Source: a virus. Taken from it: DNA of 52,347 nucleotides. A program made the position numbers and the translations under genes. The stretch lies in the IMG/VR virus record IMGVR_UViG_3300020039_000013; one strand, given 5' to 3'. Below the pieces are notes generated by a model. That model was not told the origin of the DNA. It did not search any database and saw only the letters and a list, made by a program, of their open reading frames with translations. Below are positions 1 to 52,347 of the stretch, one piece after another. Numbering within the stretch: the stretch's first letter is position 1; each line of letters starts with the position of its first letter.

Positions 1-171
1 GCAACGTCCGGCGACTGGTCGAGTGCCGCAACGTCCGGCTTTAGGTCGAGTGCCGCAACGTCCGGCGACTGGTCGAGTGCCGCAACGTCCGGCTTTAGGT
101 CGAGTGCCGCAACGTCCGGCTCCGGGTCGAGTGCCGCAACGTCCGGCGAAGAGTCGAGTGCCGCAACGTCT
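1..171 (+). repeat. 27-nt tandem repeat array (about 6 units), continuation of the array at 52107..52347
   Basis: Unit gcaacgtccggcNNNNNNtcgagtgcc is repeated head to tail. Only the two variable codons differ (DW, FR, SG, EE). Confidence 0.95.
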
Positions 172-372
172 AACGCGAACGCTATTGCGCTGGCGTGTGG
201 AAAAAACAGTAAGGCAAAGGGCGTTATTGGCTCGTACGTTGTACTGACAGAATGGGACGATCAACAGAAAAACCTTTTGCTTGCCTCTATGGTGCGGATC
301 GACGGCAAGACCTACAAGCCAGACACCTGGTACACGCTCAAAAACGGAAAGATCGTGGAGGCCAGGGAATGA
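1..372 (+). CDS. 3' portion of the tandem-repeat protein whose 5' portion is 51762..52347 (9-aa unit SSAATSGxx, then a unique C-terminal domain)
   Basis: Frame 1 is open from nt 1 to TGA 370-372 with no start codon. It translates ATSGDWSSAATSGFRSS...NANAIALACGKNSKAKGVIGSYVVLTEWDDQQKNLL... and is in phase with the right-end ORF if the ends overlap by 1 nt. Confidence 0.75.
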   Translation, partial: ATSGDWSSAATSGFRSSAATSGDWSSAATSGFRSSAATSGSGSSAATSGEESSAATSNANAIALACGKNSKAKGVIGSYVVLTEWDDQQKNLLLASMVRIDGKTYKPDTWYTLKNGKIVEARE

Positions 373-2494: not shown

Positions 2495-2721
2495 GACAAA
2501 AATGCTGATTTACTTTCTTGTTTTTATGGGCGGCGTTGTGTGCGGCGTCGCGTTGCTCGCGCTTGTGTCGGCTGGGAGGTGAGGATATGGACTATACAGA
2601 GCTGGTAAAGGAGCTTCGAGCAAAGCGCCATCGTAACCACCGCCGAATATTGGGGCCTACGCTGGACGGAATATGAATTCTATGCCCGGTGCAATGTGTA
2701 CCCGGCGTGAAAGGAGAAAAA

Positions 2722-3552
2722 ATGAAAGGCTATAAAGTTTTCAACCCGGATTTTACTTGCAGAGGATTCCAGTATGAGGTAGGAAAGACCTACAAGCACA
2801 ACGGGCCTCTTTCTATCTGCCACAGTGGATTCCACTTCTGCCGCAAGGTCGCCGATTGCTTCGGTTACTACGCCTTTGACCCCCGCAACAAAGTGGCAGA
2901 AATCGAGGCAACCGGACTTGTGGAGAGCAAGGAGGATAAGAGCGTCACAGATGAGATCACCATCGTCCGGGAAATCTCCTGGGAGGAAATGCTGACCCTC
3001 GCCAATACCGGAACCGCCTGCACTGGCCTTAATAACACCGGGGACATGAACACCGGGAACTGGAACACCGGGAACTGGAACACCGGGGACTGGAACACCG
3101 GGGACATGAACACCGGGAACAGGAACACCGGGAACAGGAACACCGGGGACATGAACACCGGGAACAGGAACACCGGGAACTGGAACACCGGGGACTGGAA
3201 CACCGGCAACTGGAACACCGGCTTTTTCTCCACCATTACTCCCACGGTTACGCTTTTTGAAAAGCCCACCGACATGACAGCTGCCGAGGTCTGCGAGATT
3301 CTCGGTATCCGAATTCTCAACTGGAATTATGAAAATAATTGGTGGATTTTCAGCCGGAGCATGACAGAGGAAGAAAAATCCGCGCACCCGGAGCACGAGA
3401 CCACGGGAGGCTATTCGAAATCCATTCCATTCAAAGATGCCTGTAAGCTGATGTGGGATAACCTTACCGATAACGAAAAGGCAGCGGTCAAGGCCATCCC
3501 AAACTTTGATGCGGATATCTTCTGCAAAATCACCGGGATCAAGGTGGAATAA
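2722..3552 (+). CDS. Pentapeptide-repeat protein. Its conserved N-terminal domain is paralogous to the one in 51762..52347 (DUF7666-like, provisional).
   Basis: AAGGAG RBS lies before ATG 2722. N-domain: MKGYKVFNPDFTCRGFQYEVGKTYK...CHSGFHFC. It is followed by 13 NTG(D/N)(W/M/R) pentapeptides. Confidence 0.8.
   Translation: MKGYKVFNPDFTCRGFQYEVGKTYKHNGPLSICHSGFHFCRKVADCFGYYAFDPRNKVAEIEATGLVESKEDKSVTDEITIVREISWEEMLTLANTGTACTGLNNTGDMNTGNWNTGNWNTGDWNTGDMNTGNRNTGNRNTGDMNTGNRNTGNWNTGDWNTGNWNTGFFSTITPTVTLFEKPTDMTAAEVCEILGIRILNWNYENNWWIFSRSMTEEEKSAHPEHETTGGYSKSIPFKDACKLMWDNLTDNEKAAVKAIPNFDADIFCKITGIKVE
3034..3213 (+). repeat. 15-nt tandem repeat, 12 near-identical units encoding NTG[DN][WMR], with degenerate units on both flanks (3004-3228)
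   Basis: aacaccggg(g/a)ac(atg/tgg/agg) is repeated in phase with the CDS. Confidence 0.95.
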
Positions 3553-3971
3553 TGGACTGCGCGGAACTTGTAAATCGTCTGCGAAACATCGCAGACGGTG
3601 GCATATACGAAAAGTGCGACGGATGCAAGTACGAGGAAGACTATCCCGATTGCGTTGGGTGTACTCACAAAGCATTTTACGAAGCCGCCGATGCCATAGA
3701 AGCCCTACAAAAGCAAATAGAAGCCTTTGACGATTCCCATGTCTGCCGAATCATCGAGAAAGACGGCGTTACGGAACTGTCGGTTGTGCCGGGGTGGATT
3801 CCCGTTACGGAGCGGCTGCCGGAAGCTGGTACGCGGGTGCTCGTTTATGCGGACAGTCATATTGACTTTGGAATTCTTGAAGAAGACGGGTACTGGACAG
3901 ACTGGCTTTATTACCCAATCCGACCAACTCATTGGATGCCACTGCCCACACCGCCGAAGGAGGAAACATGA
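3552..3971 (+). CDS. DUF551-type phage protein
   Basis: C-terminal WIPVTERLPEAGTRVLVY...THWMPLPTPP matches the DUF551 signature. The N-terminus has CxxC pairs. Confidence 0.7.
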   Translation: MDCAELVNRLRNIADGGIYEKCDGCKYEEDYPDCVGCTHKAFYEAADAIEALQKQIEAFDDSHVCRIIEKDGVTELSVVPGWIPVTERLPEAGTRVLVYADSHIDFGILEEDGYWTDWLYYPIRPTHWMPLPTPPKEET

Positions 3972-4630
3972 TGTTTGAAGAATATGAAGAATACTTCTAC
4001 GAGCCATCTGAGGCCGACACAATCATCGACGAGGCCAAGGAAAAGCTGAACGATCTGTTGACCGAAGAGGTGAAGCAGACCATGAAACAGGCGAGTGAAG
4101 CCAAGCAATCTCTGGAGAAGCTACAGAAAGAAATACGAGAGGCGGAGTACCGGCTTGGAAATCTGAAGTTAGAACACCAGAGGGAAGAGAAAAAGTGGGA
4201 AAACCTTGACCAGTATCATATGCCCCGGCAGTACATCAAGCGGCTTGTGGAGGCGGTCGCCGGTGATTTCGCCCCCGGTGACACCGTGTACGCTCTTGCG
4301 GTCGATTTTCAAAATGAAGAGTGCCCGTTATGCCACGGGAATAAAGAGGTTGAGTGCAAAATTGCGGATAGCCAAGAAGTTTTGTCCATTAACTGTCCCA
4401 CCTGTAAAGGTCGTGGATATCGGTCAAAAAGAATTGATTATATCAAAGAACGCAAGGTGTCGGAAGTCCACCTAAAGTTGTGCTTTGATGACTACCGAGT
4501 TTGCTATTGGAGTAGTAATTGTATTTATTTGGATGGCCGTGATAGCAGCACGGACATTAAAGACATTTTCCACACAAAAGAAGAGGCTGAAAAGGCTTTG
4601 GCAGAACGAGAGCCGGAGGAGAAAGCATGA
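3968..4630 (+). CDS. Coiled-coil protein with a DnaJ-like CxxCxG zinc finger
   Basis: GGAGGA RBS lies before ATG 3968. Motifs CPLCHGNKEVEC and CPTCKGRGY. Confidence 0.55.
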   Translation: MMFEEYEEYFYEPSEADTIIDEAKEKLNDLLTEEVKQTMKQASEAKQSLEKLQKEIREAEYRLGNLKLEHQREEKKWENLDQYHMPRQYIKRLVEAVAGDFAPGDTVYALAVDFQNEECPLCHGNKEVECKIADSQEVLSINCPTCKGRGYRSKRIDYIKERKVSEVHLKLCFDDYRVCYWSSNCIYLDGRDSSTDIKDIFHTKEEAEKALAEREPEEKA

Positions 4631-4926
4631 TAAAGGTATACGGTTGCTCGGATGACCTCGTTGAATGCGAAGGGGCAGAATATCCTAATAATGAGATCGG
4701 GTGCTTTAATCACGATGTTCTTATCACCTTCAAGGACGGAACGGAGATAAAAGTCGGTTATCCGAAAAAAGAGGGTGCAATCTGGTGGATTGAGAGAATG
4801 AACATCGGAACGGCAGATTACGCTATCAGCTATTGCCACGACGAAGACGCCGAGATTTACAGCGACCTGTTTGTGATTGATAGCGATATAGACCGGGTTG
4901 CGGTTGTTCCAAAGGAGGAAACATGA
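4627..4926 (+). CDS. Hypothetical protein
   Basis: ORF track, ATGA overlap upstream. Confidence 0.55.
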   Translation: MIKVYGCSDDLVECEGAEYPNNEIGCFNHDVLITFKDGTEIKVGYPKKEGAIWWIERMNIGTADYAISYCHDEDAEIYSDLFVIDSDIDRVAVVPKEET

Positions 4927-6883: not shown

Positions 6884-7279
6884 ATGGAACTTAAACCTTG
6901 CCCGTTCTGCGGGAACGAAGTCCATCTTAAAGCGATGCCGTTATGGAGACCGGGAGGCCACGGCTATTATGGATGTTATGAGTACATAATCCGATGCGAT
7001 AACATCGAGTGCGGATGCCGTCTCGCCAACCTTGGAAAGAACAACACGATATATTCCACCACGGAAGAAGCGGAGAGAAACGCCGCCGAAGCATGGAACA
7101 GGAGGGCTGGTGACGCTCAGCCCGTCCGGCATGGGCGGTGGGAAGCATCGTACATGGACGATGCTCTTGTGTGTTCCGAGTGTGTTAACTACTGGATTTA
7201 CAAAGGTTACCAATACGATTATCACCACTGCCCCAACTGCGGCGCAAAGATGGATGGAGGGGCAAACCCTGATTGTTGA
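6884..7279 (+). CDS. Lar-family restriction-alleviation-like protein with an extra C-terminal zinc ribbon
   Basis: MELKPCPFCGNEVHL...TEEAERNAAEAWNRRA matches the Lar family signature. C-terminal CSEC...CPNCG. Confidence 0.65.
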   Translation: MELKPCPFCGNEVHLKAMPLWRPGGHGYYGCYEYIIRCDNIECGCRLANLGKNNTIYSTTEEAERNAAEAWNRRAGDAQPVRHGRWEASYMDDALVCSECVNYWIYKGYQYDYHHCPNCGAKMDGGANPDC

Positions 7280-7838
7280 CTATGCCGAACAGATAAAGCA
7301 GTCCGTCACCATGCCGGAAGTAGCGGCGATGTACGGTCTGACCGTCAACCGTTCGCACAAGGCGATCTGTCCATTCCATGAAGATAAAAAGCCGTCCATG
7401 CACGTATACCCCGGTCGGAGAGGTTACTTCTGCTATGTCTGCGGCAAAGGCGGGGATGTAATCACATTTACAGAGCGTCTGTTCGGTCTGACATTTCAGG
7501 ATGCCATGAAAAAACTGAATGGGGACTTCCGGCTTGGACTTCCCATCGGCGCGGAACTGGACGAGGACGCACGGAAAGAAGCTGCCCGGATTGCCTACCA
7601 ACGGCGCAAAGAACAAGAACGCAAGAAGAAACGCCACGAAGCGCTTTTGACGGCCTATCACAGCGCACTTGATGAGTGGATAAGGTTGGATAGCGTGATC
7701 CGTGAAGAAGCCCCGGAAACGCCTTTTGACGGCTTTACAGAGGCATACGCGGACGCGGTGAAACACATAGACTTTGCCGGGTACAAGTTGGACGCGGCGG
7801 AGAGGGAGTTATACGAATTTGAGAAAGGTATTGCATGA
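7254..7838 (+). CDS. CHC2 (primase-type) zinc-finger protein
   Basis: AICPFHEDKKPSMHVYPGRRGYFCYVCGKGGDVITF is a CHC2 zinc finger. The start is chosen at in-frame ATG 7254, which is uncertain. Confidence 0.7.
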   Translation: MEGQTLIVDYAEQIKQSVTMPEVAAMYGLTVNRSHKAICPFHEDKKPSMHVYPGRRGYFCYVCGKGGDVITFTERLFGLTFQDAMKKLNGDFRLGLPIGAELDEDARKEAARIAYQRRKEQERKKKRHEALLTAYHSALDEWIRLDSVIREEAPETPFDGFTEAYADAVKHIDFAGYKLDAAERELYEFEKGIA

Positions 7839-10040
7839 AACATTACGGCGATATAACAAAACTGTCCGGCTATGATCTGCCCGTAGTGGATGTAATAACA
7901 GGCGGTTCGCCCTGTCAGGACTTGTCCGTGGCGGGGAAACGCGCTGGAATGGCAGGAGAGCGAAGCGGACTGTTCATGGAGCAGATACGCATTGTGAAGG
8001 AGATGAGGGAACGTGATAGAGCAAGTGGACGGACAGGTAGGTTTGTTCGACCTCGATACATGGTCTGGGAAAACGTACCCGGAGCATTCAGCTGTAACGG
8101 AGGCAAAGACTTTCAAGCCGTCCTTGAAGAAATCGTCAAAATCGCAGAACCGGAATGCCCCGATTTGTCTGATGCTGTCCAGGGGGGGGGGTGGACAAAA
8201 TCGGGATGTTTGTACTCCGACGTGGGGACATGGAGCATTGCTTGGCGAGTACACGACGCGCAGTTTTGGGGAGTCCCCCAGCGAAGAAAACGTATCGCGC
8301 TTGTCGCAGATTTTGGAGGACTGTCCGCTCCCGAAATACTCTTTGAGCGCAAAGGCTTGTCAGGGGATTTTGAACCGAGCAGAACGGCGGGGGAAGGAAC
8401 TGCCCCCGGAGCTGAAAGCAGCACTGATAGCACAAGCGAACCTGTCAGAGACGGATGGGTTGAACAAGAAGGAACCTACTACGATCCCGGATTCAGAGAT
8501 GACGATACCATCTGTCTGCAAGGAAACGGAATCGACCGAGCCGACACAGCCGGATGCAACGGTCGCGGATGGCGTAGGGGGGGAGTTACACCCTTAACAC
8601 AATCGACCGACCCGCAGTCATGTCCTTCCAAGAAAGAGCCGGTAAACCAGGGGGGGGGCAAAGGAATCCTCATTCAGCATGAACACACCGGAGCCTTGTC
8701 AACAATCAATAACCAATCCGTCTTTGACGGCAGGATTTGATGGGTCAGCGGGGAGCACAGCCGGAAGCATTGGTTTTGCGGAAGAACAGGCGATAACTGC
8801 CAAATCAACCGGGGGGGTATTGCCTCATACGCCGTTGACTGTCGGAACGGAACGGAGAACGAATGTGTAAACGGGACGCTACAAGCGAAAGACCAAGGGA
8901 TCAGTTTGAATCTGAACAACGTAGTCCGGGTATCCTTGTCCTAAACGATCAGGGGGGCAGTGATGGCAGTCAGCTATGACGTGACCGGGACTCTCCGGGC
9001 AGAAATGGGCGGTCATCCTCCATTAGTGCTTGTGTATGAAAGCCACGGACAAGATGCACGGTATCGACCACTCGGCGAGACTTGCGAAACCATATCCGCA
9101 AAATATGGATTAGGGGGGTAATGTTCCCTTAGTGTTGAAATATGAAGAAACTATACAACAAAGCAAGGAATGACCAATGGGAAGAGGATACCGTGTGCAT
9201 GACAGTTATTGCCCGATACGGAACAGGGGGGCAACGTGCCGATTGTTATTGAATACTGCGTAAACGATGACCCCACTCCGAAAGTCAACGGGGGGGCGTA
9301 TGCTACACACTTTCCAGAACGGGACATATCCCCGTTGTCGTGATAGGAGAACATGACATATCAGAAAGTAACAGGGACGTTGAATCCCGGTGCGCATCCG
9401 GGCAGCTACAACGGGCAAGACGCATACAACGATATGCTGGTGATTGATGAAGTACAAAATGATTTCTTGCATAGGGGGGGGTGAAACCTCGCAGACGTTA
9501 GATGCAAGCTATTTTAAAGGTCCAGGAGCAAGAAACGGAAAGGAACGTGAGGTTTTGGCTGTGGAGCCAACATACATGAGTGACCGCAAAGGACACAATG
9601 GCATTTCCGAAAATGGTACGGCGACAACGCTGACAGCACAGGAAAAGGAACGACCGATCATAGGAACAAGTATCGTTCGGCGGCTAACGCCGGATGAATG
9701 TGCTTCCCTCCAAGGTTTCCCGCGTGATTGGTGCAATATCGGGGACTGGACAGACACCAAGGGAAAGAAACACAAGGACGCTGACAGTCCGAAGTATAAA
9801 GCCTACGGCAACAGCATTGCGGTTGGATATGCAAACGGACGAAGCGGTTTCTGGTGCTGGATGGCACGACGGATTTGTGCTCAATATGAACGGCAAATCA
9901 CAATCGGGAGCCTGTTTGATGGAATCGGAGGTTTCCCGCTGGCCTTTGAATCCTGCGGTGCAAAAGCTGTCTGGGCGTCGGAGATTGAAGAATTTCCCAT
10001 AGCTGTAACAAAATACCATTTCCCGGAGGTGGAAATTTGA
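7835..10040 (+). pseudogene. DNA (cytosine-5) methyltransferase with permuted motif order (IV, VI, VIII, TRD modules, IX, X, then I, II) and multiple frame breaks
   Basis: PCQ 7910-7918, ENV 8069-8077, QRRKR 8279-8293 (frame 2). TRD-type peptide modules lie in changing frames over 8500-9480. RRLTPDECASLQGFP starts at 9678, GNSIAV 9807-9824, LFDGIGG 9912-9932. Stop at 10040. Confidence 0.7.
8013..8597 (+). CDS. Out-of-frame ORF embedded in the MTase gene; its product resembles a family seen in Firmicutes ICEs/prophages (...SRLSQILE...YSLSAKACQGILNRAERRGKELP...)
   Basis: 194-codon ORF in frame 0, fully inside the frame-2 MTase ORF 7835..8740. Family recognition is from memory only. Confidence 0.4.
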   Translation: MIEQVDGQVGLFDLDTWSGKTYPEHSAVTEAKTFKPSLKKSSKSQNRNAPICLMLSRGGGGQNRDVCTPTWGHGALLGEYTTRSFGESPSEENVSRLSQILEDCPLPKYSLSAKACQGILNRAERRGKELPPELKAALIAQANLSETDGLNKKEPTTIPDSEMTIPSVCKETESTEPTQPDATVADGVGGELHP

Positions 10041-12603: not shown

Positions 12604-12744
12604 ATGTTTAACGGAATGTTTGGGAAGATTGCAAGCGGAATGTGCCGTTTGTCCATGACCGGGGGTATTGCGGTCAAAACCTCCAACGGGTATAAAACCT
12701 ATAGACCGAAATGCAAAACAAAAATGGAAACGGAATTTCCGTAG
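12604..12744 (+). pseudogene. Truncated N-terminal remnant of a conserved phage protein (MFNGMFGKIASGMCRLSMTGGIAVKTSNGYKTY...)
   Basis: AGGAGG RBS. The conserved N-terminus is followed after about 33 aa by unrelated residues and a stop, where the MTase-derived segment begins. Confidence 0.5.
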
Positions 12745-13430
12745 GTACAGCACATACGCTAAATTCTGTTGACCGCCACGCGGTTGTGTACGATGCGAGA
12801 GGAAACGGAGATGGGGTAATAAGCCCCACCATAACGGGAGATCACCAGAACCGGGTAACGGATTACACGGCCTTGTGCGGAGGAAACGGCCAGTTGAACA
12901 ATATGAGTATGAGTGAACAGGCAAACACGTTTGATACAATGCACGACCAGCAAGCGGTTATGGTAGCCGCCGTAGATTGCAGAAACCTGTATGAATGCCC
13001 AGAAATCAGCAACGCGCTTAAAGCAAAAGCAAACTGTGATTGCCGGGCAGATTCGGAAACTTACCCAATACAAAACAACATAGTCCGTCGACTTACGCCC
13101 ATTGAATGTGAACGTCTGCAAGGATTCCCAGACGGATGGACTGATATAGGAAAATGGATGGACACAAAAGGGAAGAAGCACAAAGAAGCCGATTTGCCCC
13201 GGTACAAGGCGTTAGGAAACAGTATCGCCCTTCCGTTCTGGCAATACCTGGCGCGTCGTATCTGCGCTCAGTACGAACGGGACATTACGATGGGGAGCCT
13301 GTTTGACGGCATTGGTGGTTTCCCGCTTGTATTTGAGCGGTGCGGTGCTAAAGCTGTGTGGGCATCCGAAATCGAAGAGTTCCCTATTGCGGTCACGAAA
13401 CGGCATTTCCCAGAGGATGAAAGTACATGA
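12711..13430 (+). pseudogene. C5-MTase fragment: TRD modules, motif IX and motif X fused to motifs I and II. Motifs IV-VIII are absent.
   Basis: AHTLNSVDRHAVV, PTITGDHQNRVTDYTA, GNGQLNNMSMSEQANTFDTMHDQQAVMV, RRLTPIECERLQGFP, GNSIALP (13215-), LFDGIGG (13299-13319), ASEIEEF. Stop at 13430. Confidence 0.65.
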
Positions 13431-14969: not shown

Positions 14970-16850
14970 TTGTCAGGCTCACTGGTCGAAATACCTGTGT
15001 TCACGGCCGACGATTACACAAGCTCAAATAAACCGTATGAGTTTTTGTATTCGTTCCGGGACAATCCATTCCAACAGCAGCAAATGATAGAGAAGGTCAA
15101 AGCACAAGCCGCGTCGGTCAAAATTAAGGGGTTTATGTCCCTGTGGAATATGTATCTGAAATCCATGAGCGGGGACGTAGCGCCGGAAGGATCGAACGTG
15201 ACAGAGTTTGACGGCTTGCCGTTGAACACGCAACTTGTTTCCGGAAAGTACATTTGCAACGCCGAGGGCGTATCAGTGGTAGACGGCTTTGGGGTACAGA
15301 GGGTTATATGCCCTCACCCCATCGCCCCGGTCAGACGGTTCAAAAACGTGGACACCGGAGAGGAACTATTGGAGATATGGTTTCGGCGAGGCACAAAGGA
15401 AGGGAGGATAAAGGACGAGACACACATAACCCCCAAGGACACCATAGCAAACAACATCTTATCCCTGGCAAAGTTCGGGATCGTGGTAAACAAGCGCAAC
15501 GACAAAGACCTATCCGCCTATCTGATGGACATGGAGGAATACAACTATGACACGCTGAAAGAGGAAAAGTCCGTCAAGCGTCTGGGCTGGGTGGGCGAGG
15601 GCTATCACGAGTTCTCCCCCTACGTCAAGGACATATATTTTGACGGCGAGGACGACTTTGGCGGGATGTTCGGCTCCGTAAAATCCGTTGGTGATTATGA
15701 CGAATGGAAAAGAATTATCCGCAATGTCCGCCGTGAGCGGACAGCGGCGAGGTTTTATCTGGCGGCGTCCTTTGCCAGCACGATATTGAAGCCGTGCGGT
15801 CTCCTCCCCTTCCTGATGCACGTTTGGGGCGGCACAGGCAACGGCAAAACGGTGTTGCTCATGCTGGCCGCGTCCGTGTGGGCTTGCCCGGAAGCGGGAG
15901 AATACGTCACCACATTCAACGGGACGCGATACGCACAGGAAACGCGGGCGGGATTTTTGAATAATCTCCCCATGTGCCTGGACGAGCTGCAAATCCAAAC
16001 CAGCCAGGGCGTGAAGGACTTTGACGATATCATATACCAGCTATGCGAGGGAGTATCAAAATCGCAGGGAAAAGCGTCTGGCGGCCTCAGACGGCAAACC
16101 AGATGGCGCAACGTGATACTGTCCAACGGCGAGCACACGATTATCAAACCCCTGTCAGGCGGCGGGGCCAGAAACCGCGTCATTGAGATCGAAGCGCCCA
16201 CAAAAATCTATTCCGACCTTGTAGGGCTGTGCGAAGTCATCAATCACAACTACGGCTTTGCGGGGCGTGAGTTTGTGGAATGGCTGATGGCCCAGGAAAA
16301 CATGGAGCGGGTGCGGCAGATGCAGAAGGACTATTACCACCAGATTCTGGAGCATGACGTAACGGAGAAACAGGCCGGGAGCGCGTCGGCTATTCTGACC
16401 GCTGATACCATCGTTACCGAGCTGATTTTCCAGGACGGCATGGCGCTGACCGTGGACGAAATGGCCGCTGTGCTGCTGCGCAAGGGCGACATAGACATCA
16501 ATCAAAAAACCCTGGAATGGCTGTACGGCTACATAGCGCAAAACAGCGTACACTTCGAGCATGACAGAAACACCGAGATTTGGGGCAAGGTGGATGAGGA
16601 CAAGCGCATCGTATACTTCATCCGCAGCGTGTTTGAACGGGAGCTGAAGGATCACAACCTCGATCCGAAGTCATTTCTGGCGTGGGCCGTGCGGACAGAA
16701 AAGGTGATCCCCGGCAAGGACAACGCCAGCGCGGTCATGAAGATACCTGGAACGAAGAGCGCTTGCCGTGTGATACAGCTCCGCATGGCCGACGAGCGGG
16801 AAGAAGCGACTTTTACGGAGGTTACGGACGACGAAGAGTTACCATTTTGA
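14970..16850 (+). CDS. DUF927-type replicative helicase / primase-associated NTPase
   Basis: Walker A VWGGTGNGKT and Walker B CLDELQ. 626 aa, adjacent to the iteron region. TTG start after GGAGGTG. Confidence 0.7.
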   Translation: MSGSLVEIPVFTADDYTSSNKPYEFLYSFRDNPFQQQQMIEKVKAQAASVKIKGFMSLWNMYLKSMSGDVAPEGSNVTEFDGLPLNTQLVSGKYICNAEGVSVVDGFGVQRVICPHPIAPVRRFKNVDTGEELLEIWFRRGTKEGRIKDETHITPKDTIANNILSLAKFGIVVNKRNDKDLSAYLMDMEEYNYDTLKEEKSVKRLGWVGEGYHEFSPYVKDIYFDGEDDFGGMFGSVKSVGDYDEWKRIIRNVRRERTAARFYLAASFASTILKPCGLLPFLMHVWGGTGNGKTVLLMLAASVWACPEAGEYVTTFNGTRYAQETRAGFLNNLPMCLDELQIQTSQGVKDFDDIIYQLCEGVSKSQGKASGGLRRQTRWRNVILSNGEHTIIKPLSGGGARNRVIEIEAPTKIYSDLVGLCEVINHNYGFAGREFVEWLMAQENMERVRQMQKDYYHQILEHDVTEKQAGSASAILTADTIVTELIFQDGMALTVDEMAAVLLRKGDIDINQKTLEWLYGYIAQNSVHFEHDRNTEIWGKVDEDKRIVYFIRSVFERELKDHNLDPKSFLAWAVRTEKVIPGKDNASAVMKIPGTKSACRVIQLRMADEREEATFTEVTDDEELPF

Positions 16851-19229: not shown

Positions 19230-20261
19230 ATGTTTGCAATCATCATCGCCGCTGTTGCCCTGATTGGCGGCATTGTTTGTACGGCTGTTTTGAACAAACA
19301 GAAAAACGAAGAATATGAGGAAAACCGAGAATATTACGAGAAACACAAAAACGATTCCTATCGCAAAGTGGTAGAGCCGCAGAAACCGAAAAAAATCACT
19401 TATCCCGTTTTTATCGCAATCGTGCTTTCTCTGGGGATAATCATTGCGAGCTGTGTTGCCATTGTTCCGACAGGATATACAGGTATCTTGACGACTTTCG
19501 GAAGAGTGGAAGACCGAACGATCCCGTCCGGTATTAGCTTTGTCGCACCCTGGCAGAAAGTGATAAAGATGGACAATCGGACGCAGAAGGTACAGATTGA
19601 AACGTCTGCTTTTTCCAGCGACATCCAGCAAGTGGATTTGTTATTGTCCGTGAATTACTGCATAGACCAGGAAACGGCACAGATTTTATACAAAACCGTT
19701 GGAACGGGATATTACGATAATATTATGTTCCCGCGCATCCAGGAAAATACGAAAGCTGTTTTCTCGCAATACAGCGCGGAAAACCTTATTGCGAAACGGG
19801 ACAGTCTTTCGGACACCATCGCGGAAGCCACGGCCAACGACATGAAGCGCTACGGGATTACCATTGTTTCCATCTCGATTGAAGATATTGATTTTACGGA
19901 CGCCTTTACGAATGCCGTTGAAGCCAAACAGGTGGCCGCGCAAAATAAACTGACTGCGGAAACGGAACAGGCGCAGAAAATCATGGAGGAAGAAGCAGCT
20001 GCGGAACGGGCCATTATCGCGGCCAACGCGGAAGCGGAACAGGCCGTTATCGCGGCACAGGCTGATCTTGAAGTCGTACAGATTCAGGCGGAGGCAAGCC
20101 TTTACGCGGGACAGCGCGAGGCCGAAATGAATCAGCGCATTGCGGAAGCTCTGACCGATGACCTGATAGATTACTATTGGATCAAGCAGTGGAACGGCGA
20201 GCTGCCGGATACCGTCCTGGGCGAAAGCAGCAGCTACATGATCGACCTGACAGGAAATTAA
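19230..20261 (+). CDS. SPFH/band-7 (prohibitin/HflC-like) membrane protein
   Basis: N-terminal TM helices, SPFH core (TGYTGILTTFGRVED...ISIEDIDFTDAFTNAVEAKQVA), and an Ala/Glu coiled coil. Confidence 0.85.
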   Translation: MFAIIIAAVALIGGIVCTAVLNKQKNEEYEENREYYEKHKNDSYRKVVEPQKPKKITYPVFIAIVLSLGIIIASCVAIVPTGYTGILTTFGRVEDRTIPSGISFVAPWQKVIKMDNRTQKVQIETSAFSSDIQQVDLLLSVNYCIDQETAQILYKTVGTGYYDNIMFPRIQENTKAVFSQYSAENLIAKRDSLSDTIAEATANDMKRYGITIVSISIEDIDFTDAFTNAVEAKQVAAQNKLTAETEQAQKIMEEEAAAERAIIAANAEAEQAVIAAQADLEVVQIQAEASLYAGQREAEMNQRIAEALTDDLIDYYWIKQWNGELPDTVLGESSSYMIDLTGN

Positions 20262-20370: not shown

Positions 20371-20411
20371 AAGATAGTTTAAGATAGTTTCAAGATAGTT
20401 TAAGATAGTTT
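20371..20411 (+). repeat. Four tandem copies of AAGATAGTTT
   Basis: 20371-20380, 20381-20390, 20392-20401, 20402-20411. Confidence 0.95.
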
Positions 20412-20445: not shown

Positions 20446-20920
20446 CCCAAACGCGCAGAAAGAGGTTTTCATTTTTTCAAATCGCAGAAAGCGAAGAAGG
20501 GCGTTTTCAAAAGTCGCAGAAGGGAAATTTTTTTGAAAATTTTTCGCAGAAGGGCGCAGAAAGGGTTTTTCAGAATCGACCGCTCAACCCGCCGCGTTCC
20601 ACCGTTTCCCGCTTTGCTTTGCCGCCTTGCATAGTCGCCGCGCTTATCTCGCGTAATTGCCCCCTAAAACGGCGCACGACGGCGTTTAATGCTTTAGGGG
20701 TATAAGAACATAGCCAAAACCAAAACGCTCTTAAAACGCGTTTAAACGGCTTTAAACGCAAAGCGACAAAATGGCATGGTAAAAGCCGGGGCGCGTGGCT
20801 CCGGCTGATTTGCTTTGTATTGGGCTTTGTAGGGCGCTGGGCGCGTTTTCGCGGAGTGGCTTGTGCTGGGATATGCGCGGCGATCTGCGGCGCGTTCATG
20901 GGCTTTACAGGGCATTAAAA

Positions 20921-41022: not shown

Positions 41023-41116
41023 ACGGCGCACCAGAAAACACGGCGGCAACACGGGCTACAAGAAGTGCCCCAACTGCGGCGGCGACGGTGTGGTTAAAGT
41101 CCGCAAGAAAAAGTAA
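40991..41116 (+). CDS. Very basic 41-aa peptide with CPNCGG motif
   Basis: [41 protein letters not shown]. Overlaps the upstream gene by 32 nt. Weak RBS. Confidence 0.3.
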
Positions 41117-41129
41117 GGGAGCGGTTACG

Positions 41130-42680
<1,551 letters not shown>

Positions 42681-49171: not shown

Positions 49172-49978
49172 TTAATCATCGTCTAATGCTGAATACATTT
49201 CAAGTTCATCAACAGAGTAAAGCGAATCTTCTGGATCGAATTTTGCGCTTTTCCCAAGGTTGCAGTCTTGGCAGAGCGTTCTTAGATTGCTTGGCGTGCT
49301 TTTTCCGCCCTTCGATACAGGCTTAATGTGGTCTACATGAAGTTTAACGCCGTCGTCTGCTCTGCGCCCACATATTACGCAACGAAACCCATCGCGTTTC
49401 ATAATGTCGTAGCGAAGAGACGGCGTGACCAGTTTTCTTTGCTCGGCAATATATTCATCTTTTCCGGGCATACGGCGCGTAGAAGCACCGCCCATAGCGT
49501 AACTGACCTCATCTAAGCAAGCGTTCGCAAATTCAACGGTTTCGTCATTAAAGACATGTTTTGTCAAATTTATATCTTCAAGAAATCTGCTGTATTCCTC
49601 TTGCTTAAACTTTTGGCTGTTGGCATAGGTAACTTTTATGTTCTTTATGGTTTTCTTTTTGTTTCGTTCTATTGAATTTCTAAGCATCCAATAAAACTCC
49701 TCGCTGTCGCGGAGGCTTTTTAGCGAAGACAACATTTCGCTAATATTTTGCTTGGCTTTTGCGCCAAACGCCTTTTTGTATGTAGTTCTGATGTTTTCGC
49801 CATGGTCAATCAAAGAGTTCCATGTGTTAACGAAATCTACAGCGGATTGCGCTTTCTGCAATCTTTCTGCTTCGATTGCTGCCATATCAATCAAGGCGTT
49901 GAACCTTTTTTTCTTTTGCTGGATTGCTTTTGAAAGTATAACTATTGAAAGAAAAATCAAAAGAGCAACTAAAATCAT
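49172..49978 (-). CDS. Membrane-anchored protein with a C-terminal HNH nuclease domain
   Basis: N-terminal TM helix MILVALLIFLSIVILS. C-terminal CVICGRR...HVDHIKPVSKGGKSTPSNLRTLCQDCNLGK. Confidence 0.75.
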   Translation of the reverse strand: MILVALLIFLSIVILSKAIQQKKKRFNALIDMAAIEAERLQKAQSAVDFVNTWNSLIDHGENIRTTYKKAFGAKAKQNISEMLSSLKSLRDSEEFYWMLRNSIERNKKKTIKNIKVTYANSQKFKQEEYSRFLEDINLTKHVFNDETVEFANACLDEVSYAMGGASTRRMPGKDEYIAEQRKLVTPSLRYDIMKRDGFRCVICGRRADDGVKLHVDHIKPVSKGGKSTPSNLRTLCQDCNLGKSAKFDPEDSLYSVDELEMYSALDDD

Positions 49979-50213: not shown

Positions 50214-50552
50214 TTAAGGATCACCCTGAGATTTGCGAGCCGCTATTTGAGCTTTTGCGGTCGATGCGAGCACAGACAACTCCTGATCGGTCAGAGACAA
50301 AACCAACCGAATAAGCTCTTGCTGCGCCTCTGTCAGCCCGTCACCATCGGTGGCGGGTATTTTTATTTCTTTAGTCAAATCTTCAATTTCGCAGCCAAAG
50401 TATGCAACCATTTTCATTAGGTTGGCGCGTCTTGGCGTTGTGCCATTTCCCCATCTTGATACTTCCGATCTGTGAAACCCCATTTCCAAAGCGGCAGTAG
50501 TTGGGCTTATGCCTTTTTTGTTGCATTGAAGCAAATAGTTATCGAAAAACAC
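50214..50552 (-). CDS. CI-like XRE-family HTH repressor
   Basis: GTG after GGGAGG. LLQCNKKGISPTTAALEMGFHRSEVSRWGNGTTPRRANLMKMVAYFG is an XRE-type HTH. Divergent from the Cro-like gene. Confidence 0.75.
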   Translation of the reverse strand: MFFDNYLLQCNKKGISPTTAALEMGFHRSEVSRWGNGTTPRRANLMKMVAYFGCEIEDLTKEIKIPATDGDGLTEAQQELIRLVLSLTDQELSVLASTAKAQIAARKSQGDP

Positions 50553-50588
50553 AAAAAACACCTCCCACAATTTGTGCGATTCGCCAAA

Positions 50589-51093: not shown

Positions 51094-51294
51094 ATGAGAG
51101 AAAAATGGACTGGCGATCTCATCGGCAGGATGCACAACGCGGATGTTACGTTTGACGAGCTGGGAGCGGAACTTGGATGGGGCAAGTCTTATATCAGCAT
51201 GATTTTGAATGGGACTCGCAATCCGAACGGCGCACAGGAGAAAATGGAAGCCGCGTTTGAGGCCATCGTCGAAAGAAAAAGGAAGGAGGAATAA
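51094..51294 (+). CDS. Cro-like small HTH protein
   Basis: GGAGGTG RBS. VTFDELGAELGWGKSYISMILNGTRNP is HTH-like. Divergent from the repressor. Confidence 0.6.
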   Translation: MREKWTGDLIGRMHNADVTFDELGAELGWGKSYISMILNGTRNPNGAQEKMEAAFEAIVERKRKEE

Positions 51295-51516: not shown

Positions 51517-51765
51517 ATGATTACCCAAATTGACCGTAGCGATATTCCCGGACGTGCCTGCGTGTACAACAATATGGCGTCGCGGGAAGTAGAAGATTTT
51601 GTTGCAACCGGCTGGGACGCCTGCGAAGTAAAAGCCGGAAAATATAAAAACATACACAGCGCTGTGGCGGCATACAGAAGCGCCATCAAAAAATTGCGCG
51701 TCGGTGTGACCGCGTTTGAACGGTCTGAACGGCTGTTTCTGGTAAAGGACAGGGCCGGGGAATGA
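51517..51765 (+). CDS. Hypothetical protein
   Basis: ORF track, AAAGGAGGAG RBS. Confidence 0.55.
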   Translation: MITQIDRSDIPGRACVYNNMASREVEDFVATGWDACEVKAGKYKNIHSAVAAYRSAIKKLRVGVTAFERSERLFLVKDRAGE

Positions 51766-52347
51766 GCGAAGAAATCATTAAGTCCTACAAGGGCTTTGAC
51801 AAGAATCTGAAATGCCATGGAGGGTTTCAGTACGAGATCGGCAAGGAGTATGAAATGGAGGGGCTGATTGAAGCGTGTAACCGGGGTTTCCACGCTTGCG
51901 AAGCTCCGCTGGACGTATTCAAATACTTCCCGCCCACGAAGAGCCGCTATTGTGAAGTAAAGCAGTCCGGCGTGTTTTCACGGGATAACAATGACACCAA
52001 GGTTGCCAGCAGCAAAATCAAGATTGGCGCAGAGATCGGTATTCCTGGTTTGGTTAAAGCGCAAATTAAATGGACGCGGGAGAAATCTGGTAGAGAAGGT
52101 AATCCCACGTCCGGCTCCGGGTCGAGTGCCGCAACGTCCGGCTTTAGGTCGAGTGCCGCAACGTCCGGCTCCGGGTCGAGTGCCGCAACGTCCGGCTCCG
52201 GGTCGAGTGCCGCAACGTCCGGCGACTGGTCGAGTGCCGCAACGTCCGGCGACTGGTCGAGTGCCGCAACGTCCGGCTTTAGGTCGAGTGCCGCAACGTC
52301 CGGCGACTGGTCGAGTGCCGCAACGTCCGGCGACTGGTCGAGTGCCG
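51762..52347 (+). CDS. 5' portion of the tandem-repeat protein. Its N-domain is paralogous to 2722..3552, followed by 9-aa repeats. The ORF runs off the window and continues at 1..372.
   Basis: ATGA overlap start. SYKGFDKNLKCHGGFQYEIGKEYE...CNRGFHAC aligns with the 2722 gene. No stop before the window end. Confidence 0.8.
   Translation, partial: MSEEIIKSYKGFDKNLKCHGGFQYEIGKEYEMEGLIEACNRGFHACEAPLDVFKYFPPTKSRYCEVKQSGVFSRDNNDTKVASSKIKIGAEIGIPGLVKAQIKWTREKSGREGNPTSGSGSSAATSGFRSSAATSGSGSSAATSGSGSSAATSGDWSSAATSGDWSSAATSGFRSSAATSGDWSSAATSGDWSSA
52107..52347 (+). repeat. 27-nt tandem repeat array (about 9 units), continues at 1..171
   Basis: acgtccggcNNNNNNtcgagtgccgca units encoding TSGxxSSAA, with xx = SG, FR, SG, SG, DW, DW, FR, DW, DW. 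Confidence 0.95.

Follow-up and report, generated by a model that had tools for sequence, protein, structure and literature searches.

Two paralogous DUF7666 proteins with fast-changing repeat arrays in the putative early operon of a siphovirus-like phage

The virus record IMGVR_UViG_3300020039_000013 of IMG/VR, a stretch of 52,347 nucleotides (nt) that is called the window in the following, encodes two paralogous members of the DUF7666 family: protein A (gene 2722..3552, plus strand) and protein B (gene starting at 51762 on the plus strand and continuing over the end of the contig to position 372). Each consists of three modules, namely a DUF7666 head, an array of short tandem repeats and a C-terminal domain, and in both arrays a fixed scaffold is combined with a variable dipeptide. 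We favour the view that A and B are accessory proteins that act early, in conflicts between phage and host or between phages, and that present a polymorphic array surface next to a constant head, and we assign a probability of roughly 0.45 to this view. The locus itself is not new, as both genes are ordinary members of a catalogued, unstudied family; the interest lies in the layout of scaffold and dipeptide, in the quick turnover of the arrays, and in a possible link to the phage protein RIIB.

Mechanistically, the head of about 95 amino acids (aa) with its invariant Cys-Cys-His-Cys set, a putative metal site, would be the constant working part of such proteins. The array would consist of a fixed scaffold (N-T-G in A, S-S-A-A-T-S-G in B) and the variable dipeptide, which in B would be placed in four-residue turns and thereby line the edges of a beta-solenoid, and a small C-terminal domain would be specific to each subfamily. 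The proteins would be made early in infection and would bind a component of the host or of a competitor via the polymorphic surface of the array, and their role would be counter-defence or host takeover, and not DNA mimicry.

Shared heads and family membership

An earlier note on this DNA had suggested that the two proteins share an N-terminal domain of about 90 residues and that this domain resembles DUF7666, and both suggestions were borne out. The N-domains align in BLASTP with 35% identity over 89 aa (E 4e-14), the two family alignments are matched by hhalign over 92 columns with a probability of 99.7% (E 5e-27), and Pfam assigns both heads to DUF7666 (PF24703, cut-off 27 bits). In A, the domain spans 2722..2994 on the plus strand (residues 1-91; model positions 1-93 of 95, 111 bits, E 4e-32), and in B 51777..52058 on the plus strand (residues 6-99; model positions 1-94 of 95, 120.6 bits, E 4e-35). 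C13, C33, G36, H38 and C40 are invariant in the A-family alignment, as are C18, C39, G42, H44 and C46 (B numbering) in two further alignments.

Gene A begins with an ATG at 2722, eight bases behind an AGGAG ribosome-binding site, ends with a stop codon at 3550-3552, and encodes 276 aa; a protein identical to its product is present in the public collection (P0001). The head is followed by the pentapeptide array and by a mostly helical C-terminal domain (3229..3549, plus strand, residues 170-276), which is conserved across the A family and for which Pfam, PDB and Foldseek searches gave no match. On the opposite strand, a 331-aa open reading frame (ORF; 2680-3675, minus strand) stays open through the A repeat (PVPGVPVPGV...); in all likelihood it only reflects the repeat and does not represent a gene.

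Gene B begins with an ATG at 51762 that overlaps the stop codon of the preceding ORF. Its 5' part (51762..52347, plus strand) encodes the head, a long helix (residues 93-112) and the beginning of the nonapeptide array; the reading frame then crosses the contig end, goes on without a shift from position 1, and stops at 370-372. The array consists of 27-nt units, or 9 aa each, with an upstream half at 52107..52347 that includes the contig end and a downstream half at 1..170 (both plus strand; 8.9 and 6.3 copies, respectively, in Tandem Repeats Finder, TRF). A solenoid cap and a C-terminal beta domain follow at 163..372 including the stop (plus strand, residues 241-309), and this part matches PHROG 27197 as a separate module. 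The two ends of the window (1-28 and 52320-52347) overlap by 28 nt within the 27-nt tandem repeat, and the public contig that carries the identical protein A has 52,374 bp, which is 27 nt more than the window. The assembly is therefore circular and has been broken inside the B array. When the 28 nt of overlap are removed, B has 309 aa, and it has 318 aa when only 1 nt is removed. Short reads cannot resolve the repeat that underlies the circular join and the copy number of B, and because of the contig break the assembly limits how many units B is seen to have (13-14 clean ones here). The join as such is sound, since many homologues hold head, array and tail in one uninterrupted protein.

Over their full length, A matches PHROG 14105 (3e-109) and B matches PHROG 4433 (1.4e-77). 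As DUF7666 and both PHROGs are of no known function, the membership says nothing about mechanism. The A architecture is found in more than 8,000 clusters and the B architecture in more than 4,400 clusters at 90% identity, and a profile of the DUF7666 head alone recovers at least 6,800 clusters at 50% identity (6,819 matched) among 1.84 billion representatives. The family occurs in phages of Firmicutes, Proteobacteria, Bacteroides and cyanobacteria, and also in giant viruses. Among annotated phages, the A type is present in Clostridioides phage AR1086-1 and in a gut phage record, and the B type in Salmonella phage ES18 (gp53) and in phages of Pseudomonas, Acinetobacter, Vibrio, Ralstonia, Blautia and Pseudanabaena, while a Bacteroides phage protein matched the B type with its head domain alone. 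Relatives are named "pentapeptide repeat-containing protein" or "DUF7666 domain-containing protein" by NCBI; other labels, such as "ADP-ribosyltransferase", "c-type lectin precursor" or "ATPase", had no Pfam backing in the four relatives that were scanned. The only NCBIfam match was a weak and meaningless one of B to YdhT, and a megablast search with 25 kb of the window against phage genomes gave no close relative. The literature search found no study naming DUF7666 and nothing useful on ES18 gp53. The family is very large and sits in early accessory slots, and the layout of its repeats, the quick turnover of the arrays and the possible RIIB link make it a reasonable target for experiments on phage-host conflict. 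As a side observation, DUF7666-like domains were found in giant-virus proteins by structural matches of the B model in the BFVD database (Hyperionvirus, Sylvanvirus, Megavirus ankyrin-repeat proteins, DUF4116 proteins), which indicates that outside phages the head is joined to other kinds of repeat arrays.

Scaffold, dipeptide and array turnover

The A array (3034..3228, plus strand) was counted as 12 NTG[DN][WRM] units of 15 nt or 5 aa and a terminal NTGFF, which is close to the 13 NTG[DN][WMR] pentapeptides of the earlier note, and TRF gives 12.5 copies of the 15-nt unit at 3034-3221. The about 15 SSAATSGxx nonapeptides that had been reported for B are 13 units plus degenerate first and last units, again a close agreement. 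In A, 11 of 12 units share the scaffold AACACCGGG without change, the last unit has one synonymous change, and the remaining variation lies in the last two codons, which give the dipeptide states DM, NW, DW and NR. In B, the 13 units do not differ in the scaffold, i.e. in 21 of the 27 nt, and the six polymorphic columns all belong to the dipeptide, the states of which (FR, SG, DW and EE) differ by at most 4 bases. If six variable sites were placed at random, their confinement to the dipeptide of B would have a probability of 1/C(27,6), or about 3e-6.

Family-wide, the entropy of the dipeptide is 2.0-3.2 bits and that of other positions at most 1.1 bits, except for one scaffold position of B with 2.0 bits. 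In 2,285 A-family units, N and G anchor every unit, as these two residues define which units were counted, and the second position is T or S in 96%. Position 5 is the most variable with 2.5 bits (W 786, R 709, C 372, then Y, F, S, G and L). The scaffold codons are uniform within a genome and synonymously different between genomes: AACACCGGG is used in the window and 16 times in the metagenomic phage L020, AATACAGGT 19 times in a C. butyricum prophage, and AATACAGGA in AR1086-1. This shows that the units are homogenised within the gene by concerted evolution and that N-T-G is kept at the protein level across lineages.

The nonapeptides of Pseudomonas and Blautia phages include SAAS-NTGNR and GASS-NTGDW, so that the A pentapeptide corresponds to the last five residues of the relatives' nonapeptides, and both repeat types seem to be variations on a single design, in which the pentapeptide, judged by sequence, looks like the turn-bearing part of the nonapeptide. 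Among 147 diverse representatives, most of those with a scorable tail carry 8- or 9-residue repeats that end with G and a variable dipeptide. A diversity-generating retroelement was considered as the source of this variation and rejected, as no adenine in the scaffold codons varies, one of the changes is from G to T, and a second copy of the array is absent from the window. The scanned ORFs, a part of those of the window, did not include a reverse transcriptase.

Turnover of the arrays is quick: units are gained, lost and reshuffled. B-type alleles with flanks that are at least 95% identical have 3-16 units, and A-type alleles with flanks at least 93% identical have 4-28 units, in both cases with differences in unit order. 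Many of the allele differences resemble a clean internal deletion; for example, P0127 corresponds to P0125 with five units removed, and P0059 agrees with units 1-12 of P0010, which has 26. The longest run covers 4-40 units among the best 120 A-type homologues. The repeat number is hence not invariant among relatives, and the suspicion that the loci are variable in this respect proved right. As a separate observation, the frame changes inside the array in P0251, P0267, P0269, P0271, P0280, P0301, P0332 and P0356 (with runs such as QQPPTRATT and RRIYSRRV), and the gene of Salmonella phage Emek (H90) is annotated "with frameshift", again inside the array. These may be assembly errors or real frameshift-prone arrays.

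That both proteins are solenoids had been expected, and structure prediction supports this for B, where the array is regular, and leaves A without a confident array model. The AlphaFold2 (AF2) model of B has a mean predicted local distance difference test score (pLDDT) of 88 and a predicted template modelling score of 0.81, with pLDDT values of 87-97 in the head and 81-88 in the array. It consists of a beta-rich head, a 20-residue helix, 14 five-residue strands connected by 4-residue turns, and a small beta domain. In each unit, S-A-A-T-S forms the strand and G-x-x-S the turn, and the variable dipeptide is located in the turn. Foldseek searches of the PDB with this model gave weak matches (best E 0.017), almost all of which are parallel beta-helices, so that B counts as a predicted solenoid without a specific known family. 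For A, pLDDT is good in the head (about 80) and in the helical C-terminal domain (80-96), but only 30-48 in the array (residues 97-160). The Foldseek search of the PDB with A gave nothing (best E 0.87), and searches of the PDB by sequence returned only low-complexity fibrinogen, so that no solved relative was found for the heads or the C-terminal domains.

Genomic position and possible function

By its gene content, the window is a temperate siphovirus-like phage of a Gram-positive host. This assignment rests on its integrase, repressor, Cro-like, early operon, portal and lysin genes: a tyrosine integrase, an HNH protein and a helix-turn-helix (HTH) repressor are encoded on the minus strand, the plus-strand early operon includes methyltransferases, a Lar-like protein, a RecE-like exonuclease and a primase-helicase, and an SPP1-type portal, a lysin with GH25 and CW_7 domains and a collagen-like fibre protein are encoded as well. 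The repressor-like gene (50214..50570, minus strand, Pfam HTH_3) is divergent from the early operon, the first gene of which is a Cro-like HTH gene (51094..51294, plus strand). B is the fourth gene of this operon and A follows 2.3 kb further on, and the proposal that both are early genes is thus supported by position only, downstream of the divergent HTH repressor/Cro-like pair.

The position recurs elsewhere. DUF7666 genes are located in the Cro-side early operon also in the C. butyricum prophage and in two metagenomic phages, and in ES18 the gene for gp53 comes directly after an N-like antiterminator gene and is followed by a terminator. An early-operon position is therewith found in five independent contexts (window, C. 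butyricum prophage, two metagenomic phages, ES18). In Acinetobacter phage fLi-Aba02 and Pseudomonas phage YA3, the gene shares the strand of cI and follows it downstream, which we read as a leftward early operon. Moreover, a DUF551 gene is adjacent to, or two genes away from, the DUF7666 gene in three unrelated phages. In the window, it is located at 3552..3971 (plus strand, Pfam E 2e-11) and overlaps the stop codon of A by 1 nt; in L020 it is found at 9735-10004, and in YA3 (L005) at 4488-4925.

Several other genes near to or apart from this operon were noted. A Lar-like restriction-alleviation match and three DNA methyltransferase-like ORFs (6884-7279, 7835-8740, 9444-10040 and 12711-13430) indicate that the phage already has several candidate anti-restriction functions. 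In L020, the gene at 16142-16342, 5 kb downstream of the A-type gene and in the same operon, encodes a protein with a hairpin domain of the Acb2/Tad1 kind, and this domain belongs to a family known to act as sponges for the nucleotides of immune signalling. Between the replication and packaging modules of the window, 19230-20261 encodes a 343-aa SPFH/Band 7 protein (Pfam E 1.4e-31) that carries the PHROG label "lipoprotein". Behind it, 10-nt tandem repeats occur at 20371-20411 (AAGATAGTTT, four copies) and at 20723-20759 (AAACGCCTTT, 3.6 copies) in a stretch with few long plus-strand ORFs, which could be a regulatory or origin region. The 530-aa protein with collagen triple-helix repeats (41088-42680), presumably the tail fibre, has its own tandem repeats of 9, 18 and 27 nt at 41622-41854. 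Between integrase and repressor, a 268-aa protein with a C-terminal HNH nuclease domain is encoded on the minus strand (49172-49978), a place that is typical of an accessory gene expressed in the lysogen.

A further hint to function may come from RIIB, a non-structural phage protein that is made before the late genes. A Foldseek search of BFVD with the B model returned DUF7666 proteins first and then RIIB from six phages (E 1.1e-3 to 1.1e-2, root-mean-square deviation 2.5-3.9 Å over 101-124 columns, with predicted models on both sides). Residues ~210-305 of T4 RIIB show the DUF7666 pattern Y.K..(D)C...G...C..G[FL]H.C, here as YAWKVV...DC...GK...C.RGLHVC. As a search of a large protein collection with the C-domain of T4 RIIB gave only 8 close relatives, diverse RIIB sequences were taken from phage genomes, and the C-domains of 14 diverse phages were aligned. 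In hhalign, DUF7666 and this alignment are matched with the motif in register, P-values of 0.011-0.024 and a probability of 2-4%. When the 14 C-domains were searched with a hidden Markov model (HMM) of 195 DUF7666 sequences, T4 RIIB was recovered with E 1.4e-4 and four RIIBs had values of 0.005 or below, while the best reversed-sequence control had E 0.33. The balance leans towards the DUF7666 head being a remote homologue of the C-terminal domain of T4 RIIB, a relationship that is not established. RIIB is needed to overcome RexAB by a mechanism that is not known, and RIIB itself is sensed by a CARD-gasdermin defence (PMC10312443). The literature search found no structural work on RIIB domains, and if the module is indeed common to both, the small soluble DUF7666 proteins would be a tractable way into the function of the rII proteins. 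Together with the position of the genes, the weak resemblance to RIIB makes an anti-defence role plausible, which would not be exerted by DNA mimicry.

Several points weigh against the proposed role in conflict. The RIIB relation is weak: the hhalign probabilities are low, the structural comparison is one of predicted models, the Pfam DUF7666 model misses 11 RIIB C-domains even at E<=10, and the Cys that follows the His is not conserved in RIIB. Neither A nor B matched a PADLOC defence model at E<=1, and there was no match to an anti-defence family either. A position in the early operon would fit replication, recombination or regulation as well. As the A array is lowly scored, a solenoid design common to A and B is inferred and not shown, and as W, R and C at position 5 of A are one-step neighbours of TGG, part of the dipeptide variety could be drift. 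An extended form of the proposal, in which DUF7666 constitutes a very large unrecognised class of counter-defence or exclusion proteins, with a constant head that is the working module of the T4 RIIB C-domain and a solenoid whose ladder of variable dipeptides sets the target in the host or a rival phage and is rewritten by unit shuffling, is one that we regard as unlikely.

What alternatives exist for a role in counter-defence or host takeover? The main rival, which we also consider unlikely, is superinfection exclusion or phage-encoded defence, comparable with sieB, rex or BstA, with an array that recognises proteins of competitor phages. Fast-changing arrays would suit the recognition of changing targets, and some positions agree with the idea, as the ES18 gene lies between the N-like gene and cIII, the ral/sieB slot of lambda and P22, and as the genes of the Acinetobacter and Pseudomonas phages are found downstream of cI on the cI strand. 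However, the window and four other Firmicute contexts place the gene in the Cro-side lytic operon and not beside the repressor, and the gene is present also in large, apparently lytic phages such as AR1086-1. The missing PADLOC match speaks against this alternative as well, and RIIB, the only characterised protein with a similar domain, acts against a defence.

Less likely still is a housekeeping role, in which the proteins would be rigid spacers or scaffolds for replication, recombination or transcription complexes and the array length would be only loosely constrained. The neighbouring primase, exonuclease and DnaC-like genes, the "replication initiation" annotations in Blautia phages and a copy number that seems to be free over a five-fold range could be explained in this way. 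In contrast, the gene is absent from most related phages and occupies accessory slots, and copies with frameshifts are frequent, as a dispensable gene would lead one to expect. Moreover, the existence of two paralogues with different arrays in one genome and of maintained dipeptide types suggests that the surface matters and that the array is not a mere spacer.

The earlier note had placed the A array in the A(D/N)LXX register with W, M or R at the central position and had raised, as a hypothesis, an anti-restriction or anti-defence DNA mimic comparable with Qnr and MfpA. In this reading, the array would be a quadrilateral beta-helix that mimics B-DNA and blocks restriction enzymes or other DNA-binding defences. 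A repeat period of five, the early position of the gene and the whole-protein charge of A (-10, with an A-family mean of about -10) speak for it, but the fit to the register was not confirmed, neither the profile search nor the variability by position nor the charge supports mimicry, and we regard DNA mimicry as very improbable. The HMM search assigns the A array to Pentapeptide_2 (PF01469, xNxGx; 57 bits, E 1.8e-15, two stretches, cut-off 26.4 bits) and gave no match to PF00805, the family of Qnr and MfpA, or to a further pentapeptide model, for A or B at E<=1; B had no match to PF01469. The core of a Qnr-type helix is packed by A and L/F, whereas the fixed residues of the A array are N and G, and the putative centre is its most variable position and often R. 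At the sequence level, the arrays are nearly neutral, with a net charge of -2 in A and -3 in B and an A-family mean of -0.09 per unit, and the whole paralogue B even has a net charge of +3. AF2 did not produce a confident helix for the A array. The analysis thereby removes the tempting but unsupported label of a "Qnr-like DNA mimic".

Finally, it is hardly credible that the DNA repeats are functional as replication-origin iterons or as a binding array and the protein repeats only their by-product, although tandem 15-nt and 27-nt units with identical cores do lie in the early region near replication genes, the ori of ES18 is annotated inside gp59, and lambda has its origin within a coding gene: genomes with different synonymous codons (AACACCGGG, AATACAGGT, AATACAGGA) all retain N-T-G, which rules out a purely DNA-level role, the frame stays open, the same two protein domains flank the arrays in thousands of clusters, and the B array is modelled as a well-packed fold.

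Comparison with known systems

With respect to DUF7666, PHROG 14105 and PHROG 4433, A and B are clear members without any difference from the family. The A array is also like the PF01469 repeats of mycobacterial PPE-MPTR proteins, which it matches above the cut-off. The differences are that A is encoded by a phage of a Gram-positive gut bacterium and has no PPE domain. A search of the PDB by sequence found no solved structure of a PF01469-type repeat. With the Qnr, MfpA and AlbG proteins (PF00805), the A array has only the five-residue period in common; its invariant residues are N and G, a variable residue stands at the place of the buried L/F, and the array is near-neutral.

The B array is comparable to ice-nucleation proteins (8/16-residue units) and to the beta-roll of repeats-in-toxin (RTX) proteins (9-residue units), as B likewise has a 9-residue strand-turn unit with a scaffold of small residues and Gly at the turn. 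Relatives of B contain 8-mers such as GGDRSALT and AGYSGAAT, and these resemble the ice-nucleation units AGYGSTxT and AGEDSSLT. The Pfam Ice_nucleation and RTX models gave no match to A or B at E<=1, and unlike these proteins B lacks the Ca-binding GGxGxD, is intracellular and phage-encoded, and has globular domains at both ends.

In terms of layout, the repeats of transcription activator-like (TAL) effectors are similar, since they too consist of near-identical DNA units that differ nearly exclusively in two adjacent codons and vary in number and order. It is a likeness of layout only, as the units of A and B have 5-9 aa in place of the 34 aa of TAL units and are predicted to be beta and not helical. 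With the C-terminal domain of T4 RIIB (PF26926), in turn, the likeness concerns the head: the predicted fold appears similar, the C..G[FL]H.C motif is present, and there is a weak profile signal, but RIIB has this domain at its C-terminal end, after an HTH-like region, and has no repeat array.

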